A DNA stretch of 64,000 bases. Origin: Nitrospira japonica. GTDB taxonomy: Bacteria > Nitrospirota > Thermodesulfovibrionia > Thermodesulfovibrionales > SM23-35. The position numbers and the translations under genes were made by a program. The stretch is taken from the NCBI GenBank assembly GCA_020725385.1, contig DYFC01000034.1, positions 8,339 through 72,338 on the forward strand. Direction: 5' to 3'. Shown piece after piece: positions 32,466-50,727 of the stretch. The stretch's first letter is position 1. Each line of letters begins with the position of its first letter. The notes below the pieces were generated by a model. It did not search any database. It had not been told where the DNA came from and saw only the letters and a list, made by a program, of their open reading frames with translations.

Positions 32466-33893
32466 TTAAGTTATTAATTTTCTCGTGTCCCAGAATTTCC
32501 ATTTTAGGTAGTCATTAATGCCTTTAGCTGCTTTTCTGCCTGCACCCATCGCAAGAATTACTGTTGCAGCGCCTGTAACAATATCACCTCCTGCAAATAT
32601 GCCGGGTTTTGAAGTCATTCCTGTTTCATGGTCAGCGATTATATAATTTTTCTTGTTAAGAGCAAGATCTGGTATTGTGCTGGTTAGCAATGTATTCGAC
32701 CTTGTTCCTATAGCAGGTATTGCAACATCTATATCAAGCTTAAACTCGCTTCCTTTTATTGGTACAGGTTTCCTCCTTCCAGAAGCATCAGGCTCGCCAA
32801 GTTCCATTTTTATACATTCAACAGCACAAACATTTCCTTTGCCATCATCAATGAATTTTAATGGAGCAGTGAGAAACATGAATTCAATTCCTTCTTCTTT
32901 TGCGTGATGTATTTCTGCTTTCCTTGCAGGCATTTCTTCTTCAGAGCGACGGTAAATGAGATATACTTTTTCCGAGCCAAGCCTTAAAGCAACTCTTGCA
33001 GCATCCATTGCAACATTGCCGCCTCCAAATACAGCTACATTTTTTCCTTTTTTAATAGGTGTATCATATTCGGGAAAAAGATAAGCTTTCATAAGATTTG
33101 CTCTTGTAAGAAATTCATTCGCAGAATAAATTCCATTTAAGTTTTCACCCGGAATTCCAAGAAAAACAGGCAGTCCCGCGCCTGCCCCAATATAACATGC
33201 ATCATAACCCTGTTTATTCATGAGGTCATCTATAGTAAAAAGTTTCCCTATTACCGAATTAAGTCTTATCTCAACTCCGAGCTTTTTTATATATTCAACT
33301 TCTTTTTCAACTATAACCTTTGGCAATCTGAATTCCGGTATCCCGTAAATAAGGACTCCCCCGGGTTTGTGGAGTGCTTCAAACAATGTAACCCGATGTC
33401 CTTCTTTTATAAGATCTGCTGCGCATGAAAGTCCTCCGGGTCCGGAGCCGATTACAGCAACTTTTCTTCCTGTTGATTTAGGTTTTTCCGGTATTTGTAT
33501 TTCACCGCTTTCACGTTCAAAATCAGCGACAAATCTTTCAAGATTACCAATTGCAACTGGCTCTCCTTTTTTTCCAAGAATACATCTTGATTCGCACTGT
33601 ATTTCTTGAGGACAAACTCTTCCACATACAGCAGGCATTGCATTTTCTTCTTTTATTTTCCATGCTGCTTCTATAAATTTTCCTTGTTTAATTAATTTAA
33701 TAAATGCAGGTATATCAATCGATACAGGGCATCCTTCCCTGCATGTAGGTTTTGCACAATTTAAACAACGGGAAGCTTCTTCAACAGCTTCTTTAGGAGA
33801 ATAACCAAAAGGCACTTCATCAAAATTTCTTGCTCTTATTATAGGGTCCTGTTCTCTCATCCTGATTCTGCTTTTTTGTTTCTTTTCTTCCAT
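32466..33893 (-). CDS. nfnB: NADH-dependent reduced ferredoxin:NADP+ oxidoreductase large subunit (GltD/SudA-like)
   Basis: N-terminal Fe-S Cys motifs (CLNCAKPTCREGCP, CGRVCPQEIQCESRC) and two Rossmann GxGxxG motifs (VIGSGPGGL, VFGGGNVAMD). Translationally coupled to the NfnA-like gene. Confidence 0.85.
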   Translation of the reverse strand: MEEKKQKSRIRMREQDPIIRARNFDEVPFGYSPKEAVEEASRCLNCAKPTCREGCPVSIDIPAFIKLIKQGKFIEAAWKIKEENAMPAVCGRVCPQEIQCESRCILGKKGEPVAIGNLERFVADFERESGEIQIPEKPKSTGRKVAVIGSGPGGLSCAADLIKEGHRVTLFEALHKPGGVLIYGIPEFRLPKVIVEKEVEYIKKLGVEIRLNSVIGKLFTIDDLMNKQGYDACYIGAGAGLPVFLGIPGENLNGIYSANEFLTRANLMKAYLFPEYDTPIKKGKNVAVFGGGNVAMDAARVALRLGSEKVYLIYRRSEEEMPARKAEIHHAKEEGIEFMFLTAPLKFIDDGKGNVCAVECIKMELGEPDASGRRKPVPIKGSEFKLDIDVAIPAIGTRSNTLLTSTIPDLALNKKNYIIADHETGMTSKPGIFAGGDIVTGAATVILAMGAGRKAAKGINDYLKWKFWDTRKLIT

Positions 33894-34723
33894 TATTTCA
33901 CCCCTGCTTTATAGTGTTCCATGGCAATTTTTTCTTCATCAATATACATTCTTTGCCTTGACATTAAGAGATTGAAATCAACCTTATGTCCATCGAATTC
34001 AGGTCCATCAACACATGCAAATTTTGTTTCACCGCCGACTTCAACCCTGCATGCTCCACACATTCCTGTTGCATCAACCATTATGGAATTCAGACTGACA
34101 ATAGTTTTAACATTATGTTTTTGAGTAGTAATGCATACAAATTTCATCATTATCGCAGGTCCAATTGCATAAACGAGTTTTACACTTTTATCTTCATGCA
34201 AAATTTCATCAACAGGCACGGTAACAACAGCTTTTCTTCCGTAAGAACCATCATCGGTTACAACTATCAATTCATCCGATACACTTCTCATTTTGTCTTC
34301 CCAGAAAATGAGTTCTTTCATTCTTGCTCCAATTATAGATATTACAGTATTGCCTGCTTCTTTTAATGCACGTGCAATAGGATAAACAGGTGCGATTCCA
34401 ACACCGCCTCCAACACAAATAACTTTGCCAAAATTTTCAATATGCGAAGGAATTCCGAGAGGACCTATAACATCTGTAATATAGTCACCTTCGTTTAATG
34501 TAGAAAGCTCATGGGTAGTTTTACCGATTTTTTGGAAAACAGTTGTAATAGTTCCTTTTTCTCTGTCAAAGTCTGCTATTGTAAGGGGAATTCTTTCTCC
34601 TTTTTCATGAATGCGAAGCACAAAAAAATTGCCTGCCTTTGCTTTTTGTGCTATTTCTTTTGCATCAATTACAAATAGAACTACAGCATCAGACAAGATC
34701 TGTTTTTCGAGGATTTTGAACAT
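33893..34723 (-). CDS. nfnA: NADH-dependent reduced ferredoxin:NADP+ oxidoreductase small subunit (SudB/PyrK-like)
   Basis: MFKILEKQ...GERIPLTIADFD...VGGGVGIAP...GMCGACRV...FACVDGPEFDGHKVDF: FAD/NAD-binding fold plus C-terminal 2Fe-2S Cys cluster. Confidence 0.85.
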   Translation of the reverse strand: MFKILEKQILSDAVVLFVIDAKEIAQKAKAGNFFVLRIHEKGERIPLTIADFDREKGTITTVFQKIGKTTHELSTLNEGDYITDVIGPLGIPSHIENFGKVICVGGGVGIAPVYPIARALKEAGNTVISIIGARMKELIFWEDKMRSVSDELIVVTDDGSYGRKAVVTVPVDEILHEDKSVKLVYAIGPAIMMKFVCITTQKHNVKTIVSLNSIMVDATGMCGACRVEVGGETKFACVDGPEFDGHKVDFNLLMSRQRMYIDEEKIAMEHYKAGVK

Positions 34724-35023: not shown

Positions 35024-35395
35024 ATGCCTGGAACGTATTTGCCAACAGAATATTTACCGGTTTTGATTTTTATACTCGTTGCAGAGGCGTTTGGTTTTGG
35101 CGCACTGTTAATAGGAGTAGTATTCAGACCTAAAAAGCCTTACCTTGAAAAATTACTGCCTTATGAATCAGGTATTGATCCCAAAGGAGAACCTCGCACA
35201 AGATTTGCAATTCGTTTTTATATAATAGCAATGCTTTTTGTGGTTTTTGATGTTGAAGCAATTTTTATTTATCCATGGGCAATTGTATTTGATAAGATCG
35301 GCATATTTGCATTTATTGAAATGGTTATCTTTATTCTGATACTTTTAGTCGGATACATCTATGCCTGGAAAAAAGAAGCTTTTGTCTGGGATTAA
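35024..35395 (+). CDS. nuoA: NADH-quinone oxidoreductase subunit A
   Basis: Three TM segments. YESGIDP and FDVE(A)IFIYPWA motifs. Confidence 0.9.
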   Translation: MPGTYLPTEYLPVLIFILVAEAFGFGALLIGVVFRPKKPYLEKLLPYESGIDPKGEPRTRFAIRFYIIAMLFVVFDVEAIFIYPWAIVFDKIGIFAFIEMVIFILILLVGYIYAWKKEAFVWD

Positions 35396-35420
35396 AATAC
35401 CTAACAGGGGGTTATTGTAG

Positions 35421-35939
35421 ATGCTGGATACATCGAGTTTAGGCCTGATTCAAGTGCAGCAGGATGTTAAGATACTGCCTCCAAATGCTATTATTACGAC
35501 TTTTGACAAAATTATTAACTGGGGCAGGCTTTCATCTATATGGCCTATGACATTCGGACTTGCTTGATGTGCTATTGAGATGATGGCCGTGGGCGCATCA
35601 CATTATGATTTTGACAGGTTCGGTGTTATTTTTAGAGCTTCACCCCGACAGGCAGATTGCATTATAATCGCAGGCACAGTTACTAAGAAAATGGCTCCAA
35701 TTGTAAGAAGAGTTTATGATCAAATGCCTGAGCCGAGATATGTTATCTCTGTTGGAAGTTGTGCATGCACCGGAGGGATTTTCAAAACATACAGCACAGT
35801 ACAGGGTTGCGATACTTTCCTGCCGGTTGATGTTTTTATCCCTGGTTGCCCTCCAAGACCCGAGACATTTCTTGAAGGTGTAATGTTGCTTCAGGAAAAA
35901 ATAAGAAAAGAACAGGCGAGGTGGAGTCCATGGCGGTAA
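35421..35939 (+). CDS. nuoB: NADH-quinone oxidoreductase subunit B with an in-frame UGA (35565-35567) at the first Cys of the conserved CCxxE motif; candidate selenoprotein (alternatively an error or pseudogene)
   Basis: ATG at 35421 is in frame with the track ORF at 35580. Translation ...[39 protein letters not shown]...SPRQAD...GSCACTGG...IPGCPPRPE matches the full-length NuoB/Nqo6 pattern. Confidence 0.75.
35576..35605 (+). promoter_or_regulatory. candidate SECIS-like hairpin downstream of the nuoB UGA (weak)
   Basis: UGAUG-GCC-[GUG]-GGC-G-CAUCA, with an additional 3-bp lower stem. Apical loop lies about 22 nt after the UGA. The region also encodes a highly conserved peptide, so the pairing could be coincidental. 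Confidence 0.3.
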
Positions 35940-36511
35940 CCGAAGTTGTAGCAGGTTTGTATCCTGCCGGAATAGAGCAGGAAAAAATAGCTGAAATGAT
36001 AAAAGAAAAATTTCCCGAGCAGGTAATTGATGTTACCAATTTCAGGGATCAGGTTGCTGTTATTATAAAGAAAAATCAGAGTTTTTCAATCCTTAAATAT
36101 CTCCATGATGAACCAACTCTTAGTTTTGACCATCTTAGAGATCTAACTGCTGTTGACTGGTCTAATAAAAAAGAAGTAAGATTTGAAGTCGTTTATAATC
36201 TTTTATCAACAAAATACCGTCATATACTAAGAATAAAAGTACAGGTTCCGGAAAATGACGTGAAAATTGCTTCGGTTGTGCCGATATGGGCAGGAGCAAA
36301 TTGGCATGAACGTGAATGTTTTGATATGTTCGGAATTCAATTTACAGGTCATCCCGATTTAAGAAGAATTTTAATGCCAGAGGACTGGGAAGGTTATCCA
36401 TTGAGAAAAGATTATCCTTTAAAAGGATATGAAGGAGATAAAGACTGGCCTGGATTTATTCAAGTTATTAAAAGATCTCAAGAACTGAAGGAGTTTGAGT
36501 GGCATGATTAA
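35921..36511 (+). CDS. nuoC: NADH-quinone oxidoreductase subunit C
   Basis: [32 protein letters not shown] motifs. The start could instead be the ATG at 35930. Confidence 0.9.
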
Positions 36512-37973
36512 GATGCAGGAGCCTGAAAAGATTTTTGAGACGAGAGAACTGAATGTTAATATGGGGCCACAGCATCCGGCTACCCATGGGGTATTAAGAG
36601 TTGTATTGGACCTTGATGGTGAAACTATTGTCAGACTTACTCCATACGTTGGTTATCTGCATCGTGGTATAGAAAAGCTCGGTGAAAGTCTGAGTTATTT
36701 TCAGGCATTGCCTTTAACAGACAGGATGGACTATGTCTCAGCAATGTCCAATAATATAGGTTATTGCGTAGCTGTTGAAAAACTTTATGGAATAGAACCT
36801 CCGCCAAGAGCAAAATTCATAAGAACAATTGTTGGAGAGTTGTCAAGAATTTCAAATCATCTCTTATGGCTTGCAACACACGCTCTTGACATCGGCGCAA
36901 TGACAGTCTTTCTTTATTGTTTCAGGGAAAGAGAATGGATACTTGAATTATTTGAGATGATATGCGGTGCAAGACTTACCGTTACATATCCAAGAGTTGG
37001 TGGAGTAAGAAACGATATATCCAAAGAATTTATAGATCATCTCGTAAAATTCCTTGCAGAATTTCCTTCAAGAATACTTGAATATGAAACATTAATTGAT
37101 CAGAATAGAATCTGGCTTCAAAGGACTGTAGGTATTGGTGTTATCTCTGCTGAAGAAGCCATTAACTGGGGAATGACAGGACCTACATTAAGAGGTTCTG
37201 GAATTCCGTATGATATTAGAAAATTTATGCCTTATGATGCCTATGATCAGGTTGAATTTGAAATTCCTATAGGTACCGCAGGCGATACATATGATAGATA
37301 CCGTTGCAGAATGCTTGAAATGAGGCAGTCTGTAAAAATAATCATACAATGTCTCGAGAAACTTCCTGCCGGTCCTGTAATGGCTGATGCTCCAAAGTTT
37401 GTACTTCCTCCAAAAGACAAAATGTTAATAATCACACATCCTGTAAATGAAATTGCATATTTCATAGATGAAAAAGCATGTAAAGGATGTGGAATGTGTT
37501 TAAGAGCATGTCCTGCAAAAGCAATAACAGGTGAGAAAAAGAAACCGCATAAAATTGATCAGGCTTTATGTCTGCAATGTGCCACCTGTTTTGTTACATG
37601 TAAGTTCAAGGCTTTAAAAATAGTTCCGGGAGGAAAAGGACAGACAGAGGAGAAACTTGTAGAGCTTGCAGCGCAGCCTGTTTCGGATGAACTAAAACAG
37701 GCTCAAGAAGCACTCGTTGCTCATTTTGATTTCATAAAGAAAGGACCCAAGGTTCCTGAAGGTGAAGTATATGTAGCAACAGAAGTCCCGAAAGGAGAGC
37801 TTGGATTCTATTTTGTCAGTGATGGTACGCATAAACCATATAGAATGCGTGTTAGGTCGCCATCCTTTATTCATGCAGGATGTCTTGAAAGACTCTGTAA
37901 AGGGCATTTGGTTGCGGATGTTATAGCTAATATTGGAACGATTGATATCGTTCTTGGAGAGTGTGACAGGTAG
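36495..37973 (+). CDS. nuoD: NADH-quinone oxidoreductase subunit D carrying an internal 2x[4Fe-4S] ferredoxin-like domain insertion of about 94 aa
   Basis: NuoD motifs ([48 protein letters not shown]). At 492 aa it exceeds the usual length of about 400. The insert at aa 311-404 has [12 protein letters not shown] and [11 protein letters not shown]. Confidence 0.9.
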
Positions 37974-37976
37974 AAT

Positions 37977-39035
37977 ATGAATATGGCAAATGTAATAAGT
38001 CCTACAACTGTTGATGCTTTAATTAAATTTGGCATTGATGTAGCTATTATTCTTCTTAAAATAGTAATAGTTCTTGCGGTTGGCTTACTTCATGTAGCAT
38101 ATGCAACATATTTCGAACGTAAAGTAATAGGTCATATGCAGGTAAGACTTGGACCAATGAGGGTTGGACCTCACGGTCTTCTTCAGCCTTTTGCTGATGG
38201 TATAAAACTTTTCTTTAAAGAAGACATAATCCCTGCTCAGGCTGATAAAGTAGTCTTTTATATTGCTCCTATTATTTTTATGGCTGCTGCAATGGTTAAT
38301 TTGTCCGTAATTCCATTTGATGCAAATTTTGTAATTGCTGATATTAATGTTGGATTGCTTTTCATCTTTGCGATGGCTGGAGTTGGTGTTTATGGAATAT
38401 TTATATCAGGATGGGCATCAAATTCAAAATATGCATTCATGGGAGGACTTAGATCATCTGCACAGGTTATAAGTTATGAAATTGCGATGGGTCTCAGCCT
38501 TGTTGGTGTTATGATGATGGCGGGTTCTTTAAATCTCTCGGATATAATCAGGGCACAAGGTGAATCAATATTTGGCATGTACGCTATCCCCCAGTTTATA
38601 GGATTTATAGTATTTGTAATTGCTGCAGTTGCAGAAACAAACAGAACACCGTTTGATTTGCCCGAAGCCGAAAGCGAATTAGTAGCAGGTTATTTTACAG
38701 AATATAGTAGTTTCAGATTTGCTCTATTCTTTCTTGGCGAATATATAGCAATGATTCTTATGGCGTCATTATGCACAATATGTTTCCTCGGTGGATGGAC
38801 ATTGCCATGGTATGTTTTGAAAATTTTCCCGTTCCTTAGTTATGTGCCGGGAGTTGTATGGTTTGTGTTGAAAGTTTATGCATTTTTCTTCTTCTATTAC
38901 TGGATAAGAGCAACAGTACCAAGATACAGATACGACCAGTTTATGGCTATAGGCTGGAAGATTTTAATTCCGGTTGCGATAGGAAATATATTATTAACAG
39001 GTCTTGTGAAAATTATTTTGAAAGAGGTATTGTAG
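37977..39035 (+). CDS. nuoH: NADH-quinone oxidoreductase subunit H
   Basis: ERKVIGHMQVRLGPMRVGP..GLLQPFADGIKL, ETNRTPFDLPEAESELVAGY motifs. Confidence 0.9.
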   Translation: MNMANVISPTTVDALIKFGIDVAIILLKIVIVLAVGLLHVAYATYFERKVIGHMQVRLGPMRVGPHGLLQPFADGIKLFFKEDIIPAQADKVVFYIAPIIFMAAAMVNLSVIPFDANFVIADINVGLLFIFAMAGVGVYGIFISGWASNSKYAFMGGLRSSAQVISYEIAMGLSLVGVMMMAGSLNLSDIIRAQGESIFGMYAIPQFIGFIVFVIAAVAETNRTPFDLPEAESELVAGYFTEYSSFRFALFFLGEYIAMILMASLCTICFLGGWTLPWYVLKIFPFLSYVPGVVWFVLKVYAFFFFYYWIRATVPRYRYDQFMAIGWKILIPVAIGNILLTGLVKIILKEVL

Positions 39036-39036
39036 C

Positions 39037-39561
39037 GTGACATTCAAACATTTCATTAAAACAATTACCTTTATAGAAATATTGAAAGGTATGGCTTTAA
39101 CATTAAGAAGGATGTTTTCTAAGGCAGTTACAATACAATATCCCGATGAAAGAAGAAAGATTGCGCCTGGTTTTAGAGGGCAACATGCTCTTTCAAAACG
39201 TGGCGGGAAAGCAAAATGTGTTGGTTGCGGATTATGCGCTACAATATGCCCTTCGCAATGTATAAGCATAACGAGAGAAAAAGGTCAGGTTACAAAATAT
39301 CAAATAGAGCTTCTAAGATGTATATATTGTGGATTTTGTGTTGAAGCTTGCCCGTATGGAGCTATCTCTCTAACTGAGAATTATGAATATTCTTCTTACA
39401 ACAAACAGGATTTAATGATGACAAAGGAAAAATTATTATCAAACTGGGATAAATATATGCCCGGTACAAAAGGCGAAGAATATTACAAAAAATTCTGGAG
39501 GCCTATGTCAGAGGATTTCGGTACACCTCCCGGACAGGCAATGTATGGAGGTAAAAGATAA
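39037..39561 (+). CDS. nuoI: NADH-quinone oxidoreductase subunit I (2x[4Fe-4S])
   Basis: CVGCGLCATICP and CIYCGFCVEACP motifs. GTG start. Confidence 0.9.
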   Translation: MTFKHFIKTITFIEILKGMALTLRRMFSKAVTIQYPDERRKIAPGFRGQHALSKRGGKAKCVGCGLCATICPSQCISITREKGQVTKYQIELLRCIYCGFCVEACPYGAISLTENYEYSSYNKQDLMMTKEKLLSNWDKYMPGTKGEEYYKKFWRPMSEDFGTPPGQAMYGGKR

Positions 39562-40073
39562 TGGTATCCATAGGCTTTTTTATATATTTTGCTTTTGCAA
39601 TTGTAGTTCTTTCATTGCTTGTAGTAACAAGAAGGAATCCTGTTCACAGTGTTTTATGGATGCTTCTTTTGTTTTTCCATATAGCAGGAGTATATTTGTT
39701 CCTTAACGCTGAATTTATGGCTGCAATACAGGTCATTGTATATGCAGGAGGTATCCTTGTTTTATTCTTATTTGTTGTTCTTTTAATGAACTTACGAGAA
39801 GAGTTATCAATAGGTAAATACACCACATTTGGCCCGACAGGTTTTACTTTCGCTTTAGGACTTTTTGTAGCTGTTTCTATGGCACTGAGTTCTTTTATAG
39901 CTGCGCCTCCCGGCAAATATTCAATAGATTTAATCAAGCAGGAGACACATGTAAAAGCACTCGGTAAATTGTTATATACAGAGTTTATTTATCCTTTTGA
40001 AATTGCTTCTTTGATTCTTTTAGTTGCAATGATTGGAGCAATAGTCCTTGCGAAAAGGAGGCTTAAGAGTTAA
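39561..40073 (+). CDS. nuoJ: NADH-quinone oxidoreductase subunit J
   Basis: Five TM segments, NPVHSVLWML and QVIVYAGGILVLFLFVV motifs. Confidence 0.85.
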   Translation: MVSIGFFIYFAFAIVVLSLLVVTRRNPVHSVLWMLLLFFHIAGVYLFLNAEFMAAIQVIVYAGGILVLFLFVVLLMNLREELSIGKYTTFGPTGFTFALGLFVAVSMALSSFIAAPPGKYSIDLIKQETHVKALGKLLYTEFIYPFEIASLILLVAMIGAIVLAKRRLKS

Positions 40074-40074
40074 G

Positions 40075-40380
40075 ATGGCGGTTCCATTAAGCTGGTACAT
40101 GTTATTGAGTCTTGCTGTATTTTCAATCGGTGTGTTTGGTTTTCTTTCAAGAAGAAACATTATTATTATGTTAATGTCTATAGAATTAATGTTAAACGGA
40201 GTAAATATTAATTTAATCGCTCTCAGTCATTATATTCAGGATTTAAGGGGCCAGATACTTGCGTTTTTTGTGATAGCGGTTGCAGCAGCCGAGGCGGCGA
40301 TTGGACTTGCGATTGTGATTGCGATGTTCAGGAACAGGGCAACTGCGCATGTTGATGAAATCAAAGAGATGCAGGGTTGA
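40075..40380 (+). CDS. nuoK: NADH-quinone oxidoreductase subunit K
   Basis: ATG at 40075 is preceded by an AAAAGGAGG RBS (the track ORF begins upstream at 40048). SIELMLNGVN and AAAEAAIGLAI motifs. Confidence 0.85.
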   Translation: MAVPLSWYMLLSLAVFSIGVFGFLSRRNIIIMLMSIELMLNGVNINLIALSHYIQDLRGQILAFFVIAVAAAEAAIGLAIVIAMFRNRATAHVDEIKEMQG

Positions 40381-40409
40381 TTAACAAATGAGTATAGAGG
40401 AATAAGAAT

Positions 40410-42494
40410 ATGGCAAATATGGAATTACAATGGTATCATGTTTTAATACCTTTTCTTCCGCTAACCGGTTTTATAATTAATATTCTACTTGGCAAAGAAG
40501 TAACCAGATATAAAGCTCACTGGTTTGCTGTTTCTTCTGTTTTTGGTTCATGGCTATGTTCGCTCGCTACATTACAGGATGTTCTTGGAGGCAAGATAAT
40601 CGATGCCGATCTTTATACATGGATACTTTCAGGCACATTTAAGGTAGGGGTGGGATTTTTAATTGATCCTTTAACTGCAGTTATGCTCATTGTTGTTACA
40701 ACCTGTGCAACTTTGATTCATATTTATGCAATAGGTTATATGCATGGTGACACAGGTTATTACAGATTTTTCTCATATCTGAATCTTTTCACATTCTGTA
40801 TGCTTATGCTTGTAATGGGCAATAACTTCCTCCAGCTTTATTTCGGATGGGAAGGTGTAGGACTTTGCTCTTATTTCTTGATTGGATATTATTTCAATAA
40901 AAAATCTGCTGCAGATGCTGGAAAGAAAGCCTTCATAGTCAATAGATTCGGCGACTTTGGTTTTGGAATCGGTGTTTTTATGGTCTTTTTAACATTTGGA
41001 ACTTTACACTATGCTGATGTTTTTGCGAATGTTAGCAGTATTGCCGGTAAAACAGTCAATTTTCTTGGTTTAAATGTTGACCTTCCAACATTGATTGCAC
41101 TATTACTTTTTTGCGGTGCGGTTGGAAAATCAGCCCAGATTCCATTACATGTCTGGCTTCCAGATGCAATGGAAGGTCCCACACCTGTCAGCGCATTAAT
41201 CCATGCTGCCACAATGGTTACAGCGGGTGTATTTCTCGTTGCAAGATGCAATCCTATTTTCAACCTTTCTGAAATTGCAATGAATACAGTCGCAATTATC
41301 GGGGCGTTGACAATGTTCTTTGCAGCAACAATCGCTATAACGCAAAATGATATAAAAAGAATTATAGCTTTTTCTACATGTAGTCACTTAGGTTATATGT
41401 TTCTTGCCTGTGGAGTTGGAGCTTATGCAGCAGGAATATTCCATCTTTACACCCATGCATTTTTCAAAGCACTTCTATTTCTTGCAGCAGGTAGTGTAAT
41501 TCATGCAGTTCATACAAATAATATTCAGTTTATGGGTGGATTGAAAAAATATATGCCTATTACATACGCGGTTTTCGTTATTGCTGGGTTAAGTGCCGGC
41601 GGATTTCCCGGTCTTTCCGGATTCTTCAGCAAGGATGAGATTATATGGTCTGCATATGCTTCCCATTCAAGCGTAGGTAAATTTGTATGGATACTCGCAC
41701 TTGCCGGAGCATTCTTTACACCTTTCTATACATTTAGATTAATATTCAGGACTTTCTTCGGAGAATATCGTGGTGGACTCGAGGCAGAAGAAGCAGCGAC
41801 TCATGCACATAGCAGTTCACATGGTTCGGGGCATAGTTCACATGGTGCCGGTCATGATTCTCACGGTTCAGGACACGACCCGCACGGACATGATTCATCT
41901 CATGGTTCCGGACATGATTCACACGGAGGACATGGACATGGTCCCCATGAATCACCTTATATTATGACAGTGCCCTTGATGTTTCTTGCTGTTGGAGCAA
42001 TAGCTGCCGGCTGGGTTGGCATTCCGCCTTTACTCGGGGGAGGAAATCATTTTGCTCATTTCTTACAGCCTGTTGTAGGCCACCCGGAATTTCATGGCAC
42101 TCATGCTGAAGAATGGGGTGTAATGATATTATCAACCACAATTGCACTAATTGGCCTGGGACTTGCAGCATTTATGTATTTAAGAAAAACCGATTTACCC
42201 GAGAGAATTTCAAAACAATTCTCATTGTTATATAAAATTTTATATAACAAATATTATGTGGATGAATTTTATAATCTTACTATTGTGCAGCCGACTCTTA
42301 AACTTGCAAATAAAGTGCTTGTAGGATTTACAGATGCCAAGATAATTGAAGGTATAGTTAATGGTGTGCCTAACTTAATAGGAATATTCAGCCAGAAACT
42401 TAGAAGGCTTCAAACAGGAATAGCGCATCATTATGCAATATTTATGGCAGCAGGTGCAGTTTTTATAGTTGCACTGGTAATTTTATTGAGTTAA
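40410..42494 (+). CDS. nuoL: NADH-quinone oxidoreductase subunit L with His-rich insert
   Basis: Antiporter-like subunit motifs (GWEGVGLCSY, KSAQIPLHVWLPDAMEGPTPVSALIHAATMV). 16 His occur within 49 aa at nt 41802-41948. Confidence 0.9.
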   Translation: MANMELQWYHVLIPFLPLTGFIINILLGKEVTRYKAHWFAVSSVFGSWLCSLATLQDVLGGKIIDADLYTWILSGTFKVGVGFLIDPLTAVMLIVVTTCATLIHIYAIGYMHGDTGYYRFFSYLNLFTFCMLMLVMGNNFLQLYFGWEGVGLCSYFLIGYYFNKKSAADAGKKAFIVNRFGDFGFGIGVFMVFLTFGTLHYADVFANVSSIAGKTVNFLGLNVDLPTLIALLLFCGAVGKSAQIPLHVWLPDAMEGPTPVSALIHAATMVTAGVFLVARCNPIFNLSEIAMNTVAIIGALTMFFAATIAITQNDIKRIIAFSTCSHLGYMFLACGVGAYAAGIFHLYTHAFFKALLFLAAGSVIHAVHTNNIQFMGGLKKYMPITYAVFVIAGLSAGGFPGLSGFFSKDEIIWSAYASHSSVGKFVWILALAGAFFTPFYTFRLIFRTFFGEYRGGLEAEEAATHAHSSSHGSGHSSHGAGHDSHGSGHDPHGHDSSHGSGHDSHGGHGHGPHESPYIMTVPLMFLAVGAIAAGWVGIPPLLGGGNHFAHFLQPVVGHPEFHGTHAEEWGVMILSTTIALIGLGLAAFMYLRKTDLPERISKQFSLLYKILYNKYYVDEFYNLTIVQPTLKLANKVLVGFTDAKIIEGIVNGVPNLIGIFSQKLRRLQTGIAHHYAIFMAAGAVFIVALVILLS

Positions 42495-42521
42495 AAAGGA
42501 TAAAACTCTTAGAGGAGAACA

Positions 42522-44063
42522 ATGGAACAGGTAATAATGAATAATCTGAATTACCCCATACTTAGCACCGTTATATTTCTACCAGTTTTGGGCGCGCTTC
42601 TAATTCTCATTAACAGAAGATCATGGGAGACCCTGACAAAATGGATAGCATTGGGAACGAGCATTTTAACTTTTATAGCTTCAATTCCTTTATTTACTCA
42701 TTTTGACAAGACCACCCATAAGATGCAATTTGTAGAGAGATTTTCATGGATTCCCAACTGGAATATTTATTATTTTCTCGGAGTTGATGGCATAAGCGTT
42801 CTATTTGTTCTTCTTTCGACACTATGCGCTATTCTTTGTGTATTAATATCATGGACAGCAGTTACTAATAAAATTAAAGAGTTTTATATAGCTATTTTAT
42901 TAACAACATCTTTTATGATCGGTGTCTTCTGCTCCCTGGATTTTTTCCTTTTTTATCTTTTCTGGGAAGCGATGCTTATACCTATGTTCCTGATCATCGG
43001 TGTCTGGGGCGGACCAAATCGTATATATGCTGCAATTAAGTTCTTCCTTTATACATTAGTAGGAAGTGTCCTGATGCTTGTTGGAATAATCGTTCTTTAT
43101 CTTTATTCAGGTAAAACATTTGATATTCTTACAATGATGACAAAGAATTATCCTTATACAATGCAAATATGGCTTTTCTGGGCATTTTTTGCAGCTTTTG
43201 CTGTTAAGGTGCCAATGTGGCCAGTGCATACATGGTTGCCCGATGCACATACCGAAGCTCCAACAGCAGGTTCGGTTATTCTTGCTGCTGTCCTTATTAA
43301 AATGGGTGCTTATGGTTTCCTGAGATTTTCATTGCCCCTGCTTCCCGAAGCATCAAAAGCAATGACACCTGTTATGTTAACGTTATCAGTTATTGCAATT
43401 ATTTATGGAGCTATCATATGTTTAGGCCAGACAGACCTGAAAAGACTTATTGCATACAGTTCGGTAAGTCACATGGGATTTGTAACACTCGGTATTTTTG
43501 CACTAAATACACAGGGAGTTGAAGGCGGAATACTACAAATGCTCAATCATGGTGTAGTAACAGGAGCTCTCTTTTTATCTGTAGGTATTGTTTATGAAAG
43601 AACACATACAAGATTAATTGCTGATTATGGTGGTCTTGCTACCGAGATGCCAATATATTCATCATTTTTTATGGTGTTTACCTTAGCAGCAATTGGGCTT
43701 CCTGCAACAAATGGTTTTATAGGTGAATTCCTGATCCTTTTGGGTGGATTCGCTGCAAATAAATGGGCTGGAGTCCTTGCTTGCACTGGAATAATCATAG
43801 GTGCAGGTTATATGCTCTGGCTATATCAAAGAGTATTTTTTATGGAAGTAAATCCCAAGCTTCATGGACTGGTTGATATGAATGTAAGGGAAACTATAGC
43901 ATTATTGCCCATGTTAATACTCGTATTCTGGATAGGTGTTTATCCTAATTCATTCCTTAGCTTTATGCATACTTCTGTGCAACATCTTTTAGAGAGAGTT
44001 AATAGTGGCGGGATTGCCCAGGAAGCACAGATAGCTAAAAATATTATGGAGGTAATCAGATGA
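42522..44063 (+). CDS. nuoM: NADH-quinone oxidoreductase subunit M
   Basis: FWEAMLIPMF, VKVPMWPVHTWLPDAHTEAPTAGSVILA motifs. Confidence 0.9.
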   Translation: MEQVIMNNLNYPILSTVIFLPVLGALLILINRRSWETLTKWIALGTSILTFIASIPLFTHFDKTTHKMQFVERFSWIPNWNIYYFLGVDGISVLFVLLSTLCAILCVLISWTAVTNKIKEFYIAILLTTSFMIGVFCSLDFFLFYLFWEAMLIPMFLIIGVWGGPNRIYAAIKFFLYTLVGSVLMLVGIIVLYLYSGKTFDILTMMTKNYPYTMQIWLFWAFFAAFAVKVPMWPVHTWLPDAHTEAPTAGSVILAAVLIKMGAYGFLRFSLPLLPEASKAMTPVMLTLSVIAIIYGAIICLGQTDLKRLIAYSSVSHMGFVTLGIFALNTQGVEGGILQMLNHGVVTGALFLSVGIVYERTHTRLIADYGGLATEMPIYSSFFMVFTLAAIGLPATNGFIGEFLILLGGFAANKWAGVLACTGIIIGAGYMLWLYQRVFFMEVNPKLHGLVDMNVRETIALLPMLILVFWIGVYPNSFLSFMHTSVQHLLERVNSGGIAQEAQIAKNIMEVIR

Positions 44064-45487
44064 ATTTCCCCCTTCCTGATCTTAATCCTGTAATGCCTGA
44101 AATACTGATGACTGCATTTGCATTAATTGTGCTTTTACTTGATTTGATTGTGAAAAAGAAAGAAGCTGTAGCTGTAATTAGCATTGCAGGCACAGCAATA
44201 GTATCACTAAGTCTTCTAAATACATCAGGCTCTACATTCGGGGGAATGTATATAGCTGACGGATATAGCACATTCTTTAAAATCATATTCTTTATAAATG
44301 TCATATTAACGATATTGATTTCAATTAAATATATTGCTGTAGAAAGAGTTAATTATGGTGAATATTATAGTTTAATACTTTTTTCGACAGTTGGTATGAT
44401 GATAATGGCCTCAGCTTCTGACCTGATAACGCTTTACTTAGGTCTTGAATTAATGGCATTAAGCACTTATGTATTAGCCGGATTTATAAGACATAATCTT
44501 AAATCGACTGAATCTGCACTTAAATATTTTCTTCTGGGAGCTTTTTCATCAGGATTCTTGCTCTATGGTATTTCTATTGTATATGGACTTACAGGTACAA
44601 CGGATATAAAGGCAATAGCAACATTCATAACAGAAAGAGGATTAAGCGGAAATTTATCGCTTCTTCTTGCGATTGGAATGCTTACTGTTGCGTTTGGATT
44701 TAAGATTGCTGCGGCTCCATTTCATATGTGGGCTCCCGATGTATATGAAGGAGCTCCAACTTCAATAACAGCATTCATGTCAGTTGGCCCAAAAGCAGCT
44801 GGTTTTGCTGTTATTGGAAGAGTTTTTATGATAGCTTTTGCAGCTGTAAAAGCAGACTGGGCAACTATCTTGATCCCGATATCAATTCTTACAATGGCAG
44901 TTGGTAACATTGTAGCATTATCACAGACGAACATAAAGAGAATGCTCGCATATTCTTCTATAGCCCATGCTGGATATGCATTGCTTGGTATAATTACAGC
45001 CAACTCAGAGGGTATATCAAGCATGATGAATTATCTCTTTATCTATGCTTTCATGAATATCGGAGCATTTGCAGTTATCATAATGCTTAGAAGCGAAGGC
45101 ATAAAAGGTGAAGATTTAAGCGACTATGAAGGGCTTTCAAAAACACATCCTATGGCAGCGGCTTTAATGCTGATTTTTATGTTTTCATTGACCGGAATCC
45201 CACCAACAGCAGGTTTTATTGGTAAATTATATATTTTCATGGCTGCAATTAATGCAGGATATACATGGCTTGTTATTATAGCTGTCATATTTAGCGCTAT
45301 TTCAGCATACTTTTATTTACGAGTTGTAATGTATATGTATATGAGGGATCCAAAAACTGAACTACCTTTAACTACATCCTTTACAAATGGATTAGCCCTT
45401 GCAGTTACAACAGCAGCAGTATTGATCATAGGTGTTTTCCCGACAATGCTTGTGGAATTTGCCCGTGCTGCATTGAAGAGTTTTTAG
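44060..45487 (+). CDS. nuoN: NADH-quinone oxidoreductase subunit N
   Basis: LGLELMALSTY, KIAAAPFHMWAPDVYEGAPT motifs. Four-nt overlap with nuoM. Confidence 0.9.
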   Translation: MNFPLPDLNPVMPEILMTAFALIVLLLDLIVKKKEAVAVISIAGTAIVSLSLLNTSGSTFGGMYIADGYSTFFKIIFFINVILTILISIKYIAVERVNYGEYYSLILFSTVGMMIMASASDLITLYLGLELMALSTYVLAGFIRHNLKSTESALKYFLLGAFSSGFLLYGISIVYGLTGTTDIKAIATFITERGLSGNLSLLLAIGMLTVAFGFKIAAAPFHMWAPDVYEGAPTSITAFMSVGPKAAGFAVIGRVFMIAFAAVKADWATILIPISILTMAVGNIVALSQTNIKRMLAYSSIAHAGYALLGIITANSEGISSMMNYLFIYAFMNIGAFAVIIMLRSEGIKGEDLSDYEGLSKTHPMAAALMLIFMFSLTGIPPTAGFIGKLYIFMAAINAGYTWLVIIAVIFSAISAYFYLRVVMYMYMRDPKTELPLTTSFTNGLALAVTTAAVLIIGVFPTMLVEFARAALKSF

Positions 45488-50415: not shown

Positions 50416-50727
50416 TCAAAAAGTAATAATTTTATCTGCTTCTTTTACTGATTCATAAAGGTCATTCATATAGCCTATTGGACACATTTTTGAGCTCACA
50501 AGTCCGTGAGCTTTCATACAAACTCCTCAGACAAACATGTTGCCTTTAAATTTATCTATTTGTTCTTTTACATTGAATTTTTCATCATTAATTTGCTCAA
50601 ATAAAACTGCTTTCCCGAGCATAAAAACATTTACTTCATCACCCTTTTCTACAGCTATATTTGCTAATCTCATAGCATTATAGATTTTTTCTGCATCATC
50701 GGTACTTAAAATAAATAGGATATTCAT
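50416..50727 (-). CDS. DsrE/DsrF-like protein with in-frame UGA (50527-50529) at a UxxC position; probable selenoprotein, 103 aa
   Basis: The track ORF (66 aa) ends at a TGA. Reading through gives ...KGNMFV-U-GVCMKAHGLVSSKMCPIGYMNDLYESVKEADKIITF, restoring the C-terminal third of the DsrE fold with U aligned to the first Cys of CGxC. A strong hairpin follows the UGA. Confidence 0.8.
50493..50512 (-). promoter_or_regulatory. SECIS-like hairpin downstream of the DsrE-like UGA
   Basis: On the minus strand, AGCUCAC-GGACUU-GUGAGCU forms a perfect 7-bp stem starting 14 nt after the UGA. The 6-nt loop begins GG. Confidence 0.7.

Follow-up and report, generated by a model that had tools for sequence, protein, structure and literature searches.

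The window considered here is a stretch of 64,000 nt from the Nitrospira japonica assembly GCA_020725385.1, contig DYFC01000034.1, and all coordinates given below are positions within it. Its nuoB gene, which encodes a subunit of a complex I-type enzyme, carries an in-frame UGA at the codon for the first of the four ligands of iron-sulfur (Fe-S) cluster N2. Very likely, as based on comparison of sequences, this UGA is recoded in a selenocysteine (Sec)-dependent manner, yielding full-length NuoB. The larger claim, that this NuoB belongs to an undescribed, selenium-ligated N2 class of complex I-type enzymes and, along with it, that Sec-type NuoB is widespread in anaerobic Nitrospirota, Thermodesulfobacteriota, and several other phyla, is made with less assurance, i.e., as probable rather than as very likely.

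Reading Frame and Ligand Positions

The nuoB frame opens with an ATG at 35421 and continues for 48 sense codons. These are followed by TGA and then TGT, after which the frame is open to a TAA at 35937-35939. The relevant features, all on the forward strand, are as follows.

35421-35939, forward strand: full-length nuoB, 172 residues with U at position 49; NuoB/Nqo6/PSST subunit of a complex I-type enzyme, as based on profile and PDB matches
35406-35411, forward strand: Shine-Dalgarno-like AGGGGG, 9 nt before the ATG at 35421, read from the sequence
35565-35567, forward strand: in-frame UGA, the proposed selenocysteine codon, residue 49; its counterpart in homologues is the first of the two adjacent Cys ligands of N2
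35568-35570, forward strand: TGT, Cys50, the second Cys of the tandem pair, which is kept
35760-35762, forward strand: Cys114, within GSCA, the third N2 ligand by homology
35847-35849, forward strand: Cys143, within PGCPP, the fourth N2 ligand by homology

Profile and PDB comparisons of NuoB were made with C in place of the stop. As so read, the protein scores 238.9 bits against TIGR01957 nuoB_fam (cut-off 142.7) and 251 bits against NF005012 (cut-off 116). Mouse NDUFS7 (6g2j_B) aligns to it with E = 2e-64 and without gaps from the tandem-Cys motif through (I/V)EMM. The four-ligand N2 feature of NuoB reads as Cys at C50, C114, and C143, and as UGA at the first position, and would be complete only with that UGA decoded as Sec or Cys. 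A preliminary description of this DNA had placed the UGA at the leading Cys of the N2 tandem pair, and had judged the other two cluster ligands as well as the rest of the nuo operon to be undamaged. Translation of the frame together with the NDUFS7 alignment bears out the former, and the latter holds too, with Cys50, Cys114, and Cys143 all intact. In a PDB search from which the top three alignments were inspected, no difference at the first-ligand position was noted among solved complex I sequences.

In Yarrowia the tandem pair, C85/C86, ligates cluster N2 and has been called unusual and strained, with C85, the equivalent of the UGA site, being the more mobile of the two and lying near the quinone-ligating Tyr (PMC8042128).

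The ATG at 35421 is the real start of nuoB, as seen from the AGGGGG ahead of it and from its spacing from nuoA, which ends at 35395, i.e., 25 nt ahead of that ATG. The list of open reading frames (ORFs) instead starts NuoB at the ATG at 35580. By inspection, no Shine-Dalgarno-like sequence was seen ahead of that codon, and a start there would open a gap of 185 nt, whereas the other genes of the operon abut or overlap. Nor is the genetic code reassigned, since TGA is the stop codon of 10 of the 58 long ORFs of the window, which is in agreement with the earlier reading of TGA as an ordinary stop elsewhere in this DNA.

Recurrence of the UGA in Other Genomes

One genome per species, for 185,579 species (2 x 596 Gb), was scanned for the pattern TGGCC-N7-TTYGG-NTN-NNN-TGA-TGY-NNN-NTN-GAR-ATG, that is, W-P-x-x-F-G-x-x-[TGA]-C-x-x-E-M. 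The pattern amounts to approximately 22.5 specified base-equivalents, and approximately 0.03 matches to it are expected by chance. This nuoB codon nevertheless is TGA in at least 120 loci, and the counts that follow are among the 120 matches listed (L001-L120), all of which are in-frame nuoB. In 120 of 120 the upstream part is intact (...NWGRxxS(I/L)WPxTFGLA) and runs into the TGA. Following the TGA there then are 123 to 138 codons prior to a normal stop, save where the fetched stretch ends. Both halves of nuoB are under purifying selection at the protein level in more than 100 species, with synonymous sites varying freely outside of a hairpin that is described below.

By record title, 57 of the matches listed are of Nitrospirota type and 48 of Deltaproteobacteria/Thermodesulfobacteriota type, the latter including the names Syntrophaceae, Syntrophorhabdus, Desulfobacterales, Ca. 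Tharpella, Caldimicrobium, and Thermodesulfatator. Those remaining are Chloroflexota (3), Bacillota (1), Planctomycetales (1), Ca. Udaeobacter (1), and nine with vaguer labels. One listed locus is from a cultured isolate, Thermodesulfatator autotrophicus S606 (L094, NZ_LSFI01000021.1).

These observations bear on the simplest of the alternatives, which is that the TGA arose through faulty sequencing or assembly or, instead, that nuoB is a decaying pseudogene. A single TGC or TGT to TGA substitution would suffice, and the window apparently comes from metagenomic or metagenome-assembled genome (MAG) data. The same TGA, however, is present in at least 120 independent assemblies, including that of the isolate. 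There are, in addition, no other stops or frameshifts, and amino acids are conserved on both sides of the TGA even as synonymous sites outside of the hairpin are free to change. Degraded flanking sequence in relatives carrying the same UGA, which the preliminary description viewed as an indication of pseudogenes, is not what is seen, as these flanks are perfectly conserved. The chance that error or decay accounts for the UGA is, in our estimation, negligible.

Separately from the above, two UGA-nuoB genes each are found in three MAGs, which are JACREW01 (L046 and L077), CAMTVO01 (L036 and L114), and CAYQJS01 (L009 and L090). It therefore is possible for a genome to carry more than one Sec-type complex I operon.

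A Hairpin Downstream of the UGA

Sec insertion in bacteria employs a selenocysteine insertion sequence (SECIS), for which the following is the proposed element in the window.

35581-35600, forward strand: proposed bacterial SECIS, UGAUG-GCC-[GUG]-GGC-(G)-CAUCA, 8 bp, with the G at 35595 bulged out

The apical loop of this hairpin is at 35589-35591, which is 21 nt past the UGA, and there is a weak extension to 35577-35604. The 20-mer folds at -8.0 kcal/mol (z = -2.0), which drops to -8.7 kcal/mol when two further pairs are added. The bacterial SECIS (bSECIS) model requires a loop of 3-9 nt, an upper stem of 4-16 bp, a spacing of 16-37 nt, and an energy of at most -7.5 kcal/mol, along with G in the first two loop positions, usually then followed by G or U (PMC13188914). 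The window hairpin satisfies every one of these constraints, i.e., with its 3-nt loop starting GU, 8 bp including one bulge, spacing of 21 nt, and energy of -8.0 to -8.7 kcal/mol.

Nearly all Sec-type loci possess a hairpin between +16 and +40. Its sequence differs by clade, and each version is tied to a different peptide. One clade thus displays ACGACG-GGA-UCGUCA, with peptide MMTTGSSH. Another displays GGCUGCU-GGA-AGCAGCC, with peptide MMAAGSSH, for which two Ser codons have gone from UCN to AGY, matching an Ala GCU rather than a Thr ACG. Further clade hairpins are GGCCGCA-GGU-GCGAGCC, GGCUACU-AGUUUA-AGUAGUU, and GGUUGCC-AGUAU-GGCAACC, the last with peptide MMVASMATW, and the hairpin of the Bacillota locus is GGCUGCA-GGU-GCAGCC. 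Loops include CGGGA, GGA, AGGU, GUA, GUU, AGUUC, and GUG, with G always first or second.

A single consensus structure across clades, as based on a gapless codon alignment, was attempted and abandoned, with registers differing (i+j of approximately 50 to 59). As hairpin registers differ, per-sequence tests, synonymous shuffles, entropy profiles, and one clade with hairpins in register were used instead. About one-third of Sec-type sequences lose the local hairpin from their minimum-energy structure once the longer stretch of +9 to +60 is folded, and for that reason a narrower stretch (+12 to +48) was used as well. The Sec- and Cys-type sets that were compared consist of related sequences from different taxa, which the tests treat as independent.

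Sec-type sequences fold more stably than their synonymous recodings (mean z = -1.41, n=112; p < 0.05 in 25%), versus no such tendency in Cys-type genes possessing the CCAIEMMxxGxxHxD motif (mean z = +0.02, n=114; p < 0.05 in none). Local folding energy is -8.6 kcal/mol for Sec-type sequences versus -6.4 for Cys-type, and this is despite the lower G+C of the Sec-type set (51% vs 62%). With the energy threshold varied, 42-77% of the Sec-type set and 9-19% of the Cys-type set pass the bSECIS model (Fisher p 6e-9 to 1e-22, with related sequences counted as independent). Across six Sec-type clades, synonymous-site entropy over codons +5 to +12 is 0.0-0.5 bits versus 0.9-1.3 bits for the rest of the gene. 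No such trough is present in the Cys-type set, for which the corresponding values are 1.51 versus 1.34 bits.

Of the seven base pairs in the hairpins of a Syntrophia-like clade, which share one register, two vary in both partners (GC:9, CG:3, AU:1, UG:1 for one, and CG:9, UA:3, UG:2 for the other). In one covarying pair, a Met-to-Ile replacement is offset by a synonymous change in a Thr codon. The covariation score for this clade is 0.344, versus 0.167 for shuffles, of which 0/500 reach 0.344, and versus at most 0.091 for slid registers. The direction of the effect is the same in every hairpin test.

The hairpin might be viewed differently, that is, as serving in ribosome pausing or mRNA stability, with the UGA read in a leaky manner by a near-cognate tRNA, e.g., for Trp. 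The small size of the window hairpin and its weak statistics when taken singly are in line with such a view. Trp, or indeed any bulky residue, at an Fe-S ligand position nevertheless is unlikely to give rise to a working N2, as judged from the role of the ligand (PMC8042128). The hairpin, furthermore, fits the SECIS model in both loop composition and spacing, with its spacing also matching that of the SECIS of a second UGA-containing gene in the window (below). Leaky readthrough is in our view highly improbable.

Sec/Cys Pairs and Split Annotation

The same codon is TGC or TGT in close relatives. Full-length homologues possessing Cys-Cys reach up to 86% identity to the NuoB of the window. With all sequences taken together, identity between a Sec-type sequence and its closest Cys-type counterpart rises as high as 96%. 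By parsimony on a neighbour-joining tree of 317 sequences, there have been at least approximately 24 changes between Sec and Cys, which is a rough figure because the protein is short and conserved and the tree therefore poorly resolved. The alignment of orthologues, as proposed in the preliminary description for seeking Sec/Cys pairs at the UGA column, thus turns out strongly positive, with both the TGA loci and their close Cys-type relatives in evidence.

The fate of the hairpin in Cys-type genes is variable. L241-L243 carry TGC TGT, with the hairpin unchanged in L241 and present as a one-base variant in L242 and L243, while Cys-type L245 keeps the ACGACG/UCGUCA hairpin. In L241 (1501-2019) and L245 (380-898), both of which encode the Cys pair directly (TGC TGT/TGC), the hairpin is base for base as found in Sec-type relatives. 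The hairpin is gone, however, from the more distant Cys-type L244, L246, L247, and L248. By sequence, the hairpins of L241 and L245 look like fossil SECIS elements, left behind by recent TGA-to-TGC conversion and with decay following later, though change in the opposite direction is also possible.

In public databases the gene is found in pieces. The two fragments of the window gene are present in the public protein collection as separate 119-aa and 48-aa calls. Records of 119 aa include P0121 and P0123 (HZV46672.1), and those of 48 aa are P0135-P0139. NCBI's name for the 119-aa relative HZV46672.1 is 'NADH-quinone oxidoreductase subunit NuoB'. One cluster at 90% identity mixes 119-aa calls with 172/173-aa Cys forms, from which it follows that annotation pipelines are taking the UGA as a stop. 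P0125 and P0128 are further public records in this split-annotation set.

Taken at face value, those calls describe another possibility, which is that the UGA indeed terminates translation. NuoB would then consist of 48-residue and 119-residue pieces, with restart at the ATG at 35580 or 35583, or of a C-terminal piece only, and N2 would lack its first ligand or make use of another. Gene callers, including NCBI's, annotate exactly these two pieces, and two in-frame AUG codons (35580, 35583) are available starting 12 nt past the UGA. The break, however, falls exactly at the Cys codon in every listed locus and does so in several phyla. The Met-Met codons belong to the universal EMM motif, rather than representing a lineage-specific restart, and no Shine-Dalgarno-like sequence was seen ahead of them. 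Termination with restart predicts neither a covarying, G-loop hairpin 16-40 nt downstream nor the lack of that hairpin in Cys-type genes, and frequent exchange with TGC/TGT would be unexpected as well. We consider termination to be very unlikely.

Decoding Capacity, and Cys as a Possible Inserted Residue

A second gene in the window is relevant to whether the host can insert Sec at all.

50416-50727, reverse strand: DsrE-like selenoprotein gene with U-G-V-C motif; UGA at 50527-50529, SECIS hairpin at 50493-50512

The encoded protein scores 43.4 bits against Pfam PF02635 (cut-off 22.7) and has no NCBIfam match at 1e-5. Its hairpin consists of 8 bp, AGCUCACG-GACU-UGUGAGCU, with the loop beginning 22 nt past the UGA. 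The ORF list splits this gene, and only a 66-aa piece of it is listed. Among the catalogued selenoprotein families is 'DsrE-like protein, PF02635, UxxC' (PMC13188914). The earlier suggestion of a second UGA-interrupted gene with a very good SECIS hairpin is upheld, that is, and the gene is of a known family. As the window holds a UGA gene of a catalogued selenoprotein family along with its SECIS, the host genome very probably decodes UGA as Sec. Besides nuoB and this DsrE-like gene, no plausible gene pair separated by an in-frame TGA was found in the window, as judged by position and downstream fold energy. More broadly, complete selA/B/C/D sets have been reported for Thermodesulfovibrio, Thermodesulfobacteria, and Syntrophobacterales/Desulfobacterales genomes (PMC5389517), and selB/selC for Nitrospirae (PMC8124441).

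The most serious alternative accepts recoding and differs as to what is inserted. Here the same SECIS/SelB-type route would deliver Cys, either always or under selenium scarcity, via selC*, a tRNA-Sec-like tRNA-Cys(UCA), possibly with its own SelB*. The product would be an ordinary Cys-Cys NuoB or, with the site facultatively Sec or Cys, sometimes so, and in either case recoding would stay. Thermodesulfobacteria, Thermodesulfovibrio, Syntrophobacterales, Desulfobacterales, and Smithella have yielded tRNA-Cys genes of the selC* kind, in part with UCA, the opal anticodon, and a selC* tRNA has been shown to be able to insert Cys at a Sec UGA in E. coli (Mukai et al., PMC5389517). Lineages with selC* (UCA or GCA anticodon) largely overlap those with UGA-nuoB, an overlap that hints at facultative Sec/Cys decoding. 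Cys at this site also is clearly functional, given that close relatives encode it directly.

Against Cys insertion is that no selC*-type tRNA was found in the window nor in the listed 120 loci, the latter scan having been read only for tRNA-Sec labels. Every selC*-bearing genome in PMC5389517 also had complete Sec machinery, so Sec insertion would still be available. In addition, a costly UGA plus hairpin has been kept by purifying selection in more than 100 species, though a one-base change would provide the Cys protein. Insertion of Cys rather than Sec appears to be unlikely.

Weighing Sec Insertion

A number of results count against Sec insertion at nuoB, or at least do not favor it. ARAGORN found no tRNA-Sec in the window or in the listed 120 loci, and no sel gene is present in either of these. 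Rfam, applied to the whole window at gathering thresholds, returned two tRNAs only and no SECIS-like family. Considered alone, the window hairpin does only modestly better than synonymous-codon shuffles (z = -1.38, p = 0.11) and dinucleotide shuffles (z = -1.5 to -2.0). The 76 nt starting from the UGA show no significant fold (z = +0.69), with the favored stem including the UGA itself. The hairpin is kept in some of the closest Cys-type genes (L241, L245) and so is not perfectly diagnostic of the UGA state. Lastly, p-values from the cross-genome tests overstate independence since the compared sequences are related.

The 76-nt fold was set aside for the local hairpin because a ribosome decoding the UGA would sit over roughly the first twelve nucleotides past it and because the local hairpin is in register with those of other clades. 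The preliminary description had called the SECIS-like hairpin weak. This stands insofar as the window hairpin by itself is modest (z = -1.4 to -2.0), but does not stand for the hairpin as a class, since it fits the bSECIS model and the class is backed by comparison across genomes.

Sec insertion would proceed as follows. Translation would initiate at the ATG at 35421, with the ribosome arriving at the UGA at 35565-35567. The hairpin at 35581-35600, within the coding sequence, would work as a bacterial SECIS, recruiting SelB with Sec-tRNA(Sec), SelB and tRNA-Sec being the presumed decoders. Selenocysteine would then be inserted, with translation running on to the TAA at 35937-35939. In the resulting protein, Sec49 along with Cys50, Cys114, and Cys143 would ligate the terminal [4Fe-4S] cluster N2, beside the quinone site, presumably via an Fe-Se bond at Sec49. 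Selenium supply may, in some lineages, decide whether Sec or Cys goes in at this site, i.e., by way of selC*-type tRNAs.

What selenium might contribute at N2 is a matter of speculation. Placed at the more mobile ligand of the tandem pair, near the quinone, it may tune N2 in its redox or protonation chemistry. A lower ligand pKa could alter the pH-dependent potential, longer bonds could ease the strained tandem geometry, or there could be a gain in tolerance of oxidation.

The nuo Operon and Its Neighbors

In the window, which has a G+C of 36%, nuoB is part of the following operon.

35024-45487, forward strand: eleven-gene operon nuoA-B-C-D-H-I-J-K-L-M-N, without nuoEFG; NCBIfam matches for NuoA, C, D, H, and I, with J to N putatively assigned by the order and size of their ORFs

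UGA-nuoB operons elsewhere are of several types. Some are similarly eleven-gene operons, with nuoD and nuoH 14-85 bp apart. Others possess a nuoD-nuoH gap of 4.3-5.0 kb, which by size alone is what would be expected for the nuoEFG of fourteen-gene operons. In a third type this gap is approximately 2.3 kb. The fourth has a rearranged B-D-A-C-H order, i.e., nuoB then nuoD, followed by nuoA, nuoC, and nuoH, as seen with L113, L117, L046, and L114 (Caldimicrobium, Thermodesulfobacteriota, and Nitrospirae MAGs).

NuoD of the window (36495-37973, forward strand) is 492 aa rather than the usual approximately 390-400 aa. It carries an insertion at approximately 37440-37650, or about residues 318-390, that is a ferredoxin-like domain with two [4Fe-4S] motifs. 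The only others to share this insertion are L016, L018, and L054, the Sec-type loci most closely related to the window. Given an operon lacking nuoEFG, the inserted domain could be a built-in module for electron entry.

Divergent from and upstream of the nuo operon (32466-34723, reverse strand) are a GltD/NfnB-like gene (Fer4_20 plus Pyr_redox_2) and a gene for a DHODB-type Fe-S/NAD-binding subunit. This pair resembles NfnAB or sulfide dehydrogenase. The same two genes adjoin nuoA in Cys-type L241 and L242 as well as in Sec-type L016, L017, L041, and L054, and this recurrence beside nuoA suggests that the NfnAB-like pair is functionally tied to the eleven-subunit complex.

Possible Consequences of the Proposed Selenium-Ligated N2

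Electrons moving through complex I reach N2 last and from there pass to quinone, and the unusual ligation of N2 by tandem Cys has long been tied to its high, pH-dependent potential as well as to the start of energy coupling (PMC8042128). Were the Sec reading correct, respiratory complex I would have its first selenoprotein subunit, and a central respiratory enzyme would thereby join the selenoproteome. Sec-type NuoB also would supply a natural variant of N2, found in at least one cultured thermophile, for study of the N2-quinone junction by 77Se electron paramagnetic resonance or electron-nuclear double resonance (EPR/ENDOR) or by anomalous scattering. Sec and Cys could then be compared cleanly in near-identical proteins, i.e., toward seeing what selenium buys at an Fe-S ligand.

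The split annotation of nuoB in these anaerobes would be corrected as well. Systematic mis-annotation of Sec-type nuoB, as an unnamed 48-aa ORF plus a 119-aa 'NuoB', can make complex I score as defective in metabolic reconstructions.

Relationship to Known Systems

As for precedent, a full-text literature search, with most subscription journals outside of its reach and prior description thus possible, found no paper tying selenocysteine or selenoproteins to NuoB, Nqo6, NDUFS7, or cluster N2 in prokaryotes. Neither NuoB, PF01058, nor TIGR01957 is in the selenoprotein catalogue tables of reviews from 2022 and May 2026 (PMC13188914 being one such catalogue), which hold only NqrE, PF02508. NCBIfam release 20 has generic NuoB models only, with no selenoprotein-specific NuoB model. 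A Sec ligand on N2, which the preliminary description regarded as functionally remarkable, is not among what these searches and catalogues supply.

The closest known protein is Cys-type NuoB/Nqo6/PSST itself (NDUFS7; PF01058, TIGR01957). The NuoB of the window shares with it a fold family, placement between nuoA and nuoC, Cys at three of four N2 ligands, and the motif WPxTFGLA-x-CAIEMM ... GSCA ... PGCPP. It differs in possessing UGA instead of TGY at the first ligand and a SECIS-type hairpin in the next approximately 35 nt of coding sequence.

The small subunit of hydrogenases is a homologue of NuoB, the large subunit a homologue of NuoD, and NuoB here also has a weak NCBIfam match to the NiFeSe hydrogenase small subunit. 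In [NiFeSe] hydrogenases, as proposed for NuoB, Sec takes the place of a metal-ligand Cys, and Cys- and Sec-type enzymes coexist in related organisms (PMC13188914). The hydrogenase Sec, however, is in the large subunit, where it binds Ni, whereas that of NuoB is in the homologue of the small subunit and would bind iron of the cluster equivalent to the proximal [4Fe-4S] cluster.

Catalogued Fe-S selenoproteins, i.e., HdrA and the CopZ-like GxUC family, resemble NuoB in that Sec replaces a cluster-binding Cys, and they do so in similar anaerobes, with the CopZ-like family already displaying adjacent Sec-Cys dyads (PMC13188914). They are, however, of other families and involve other clusters, and none is a subunit of a respiratory complex I-type enzyme.

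The hairpin, for its part, is like the E. coli fdhF-type SECIS and the bSECISearch consensus in being a stem-loop inside the ORF following the UGA, with a small loop, G first or second, and spacing of 16-37 nt. It is shorter and weaker than the classical fdhF element, and is squeezed into a highly conserved peptide, CAIEMMxxGxSH, which is why its register varies by clade and why Rfam is blind to it. Sec-type NuoB, that is, is of a known kind, a selenoprotein of Sec/Cys pairs with an in-ORF SECIS and with Sec standing in for a metal-ligand Cys, as with [NiFeSe] hydrogenases, HdrA, and CopZ-like GxUC proteins. What appears to be new is its presence in complex I, its location at the terminal cluster, and its breadth.

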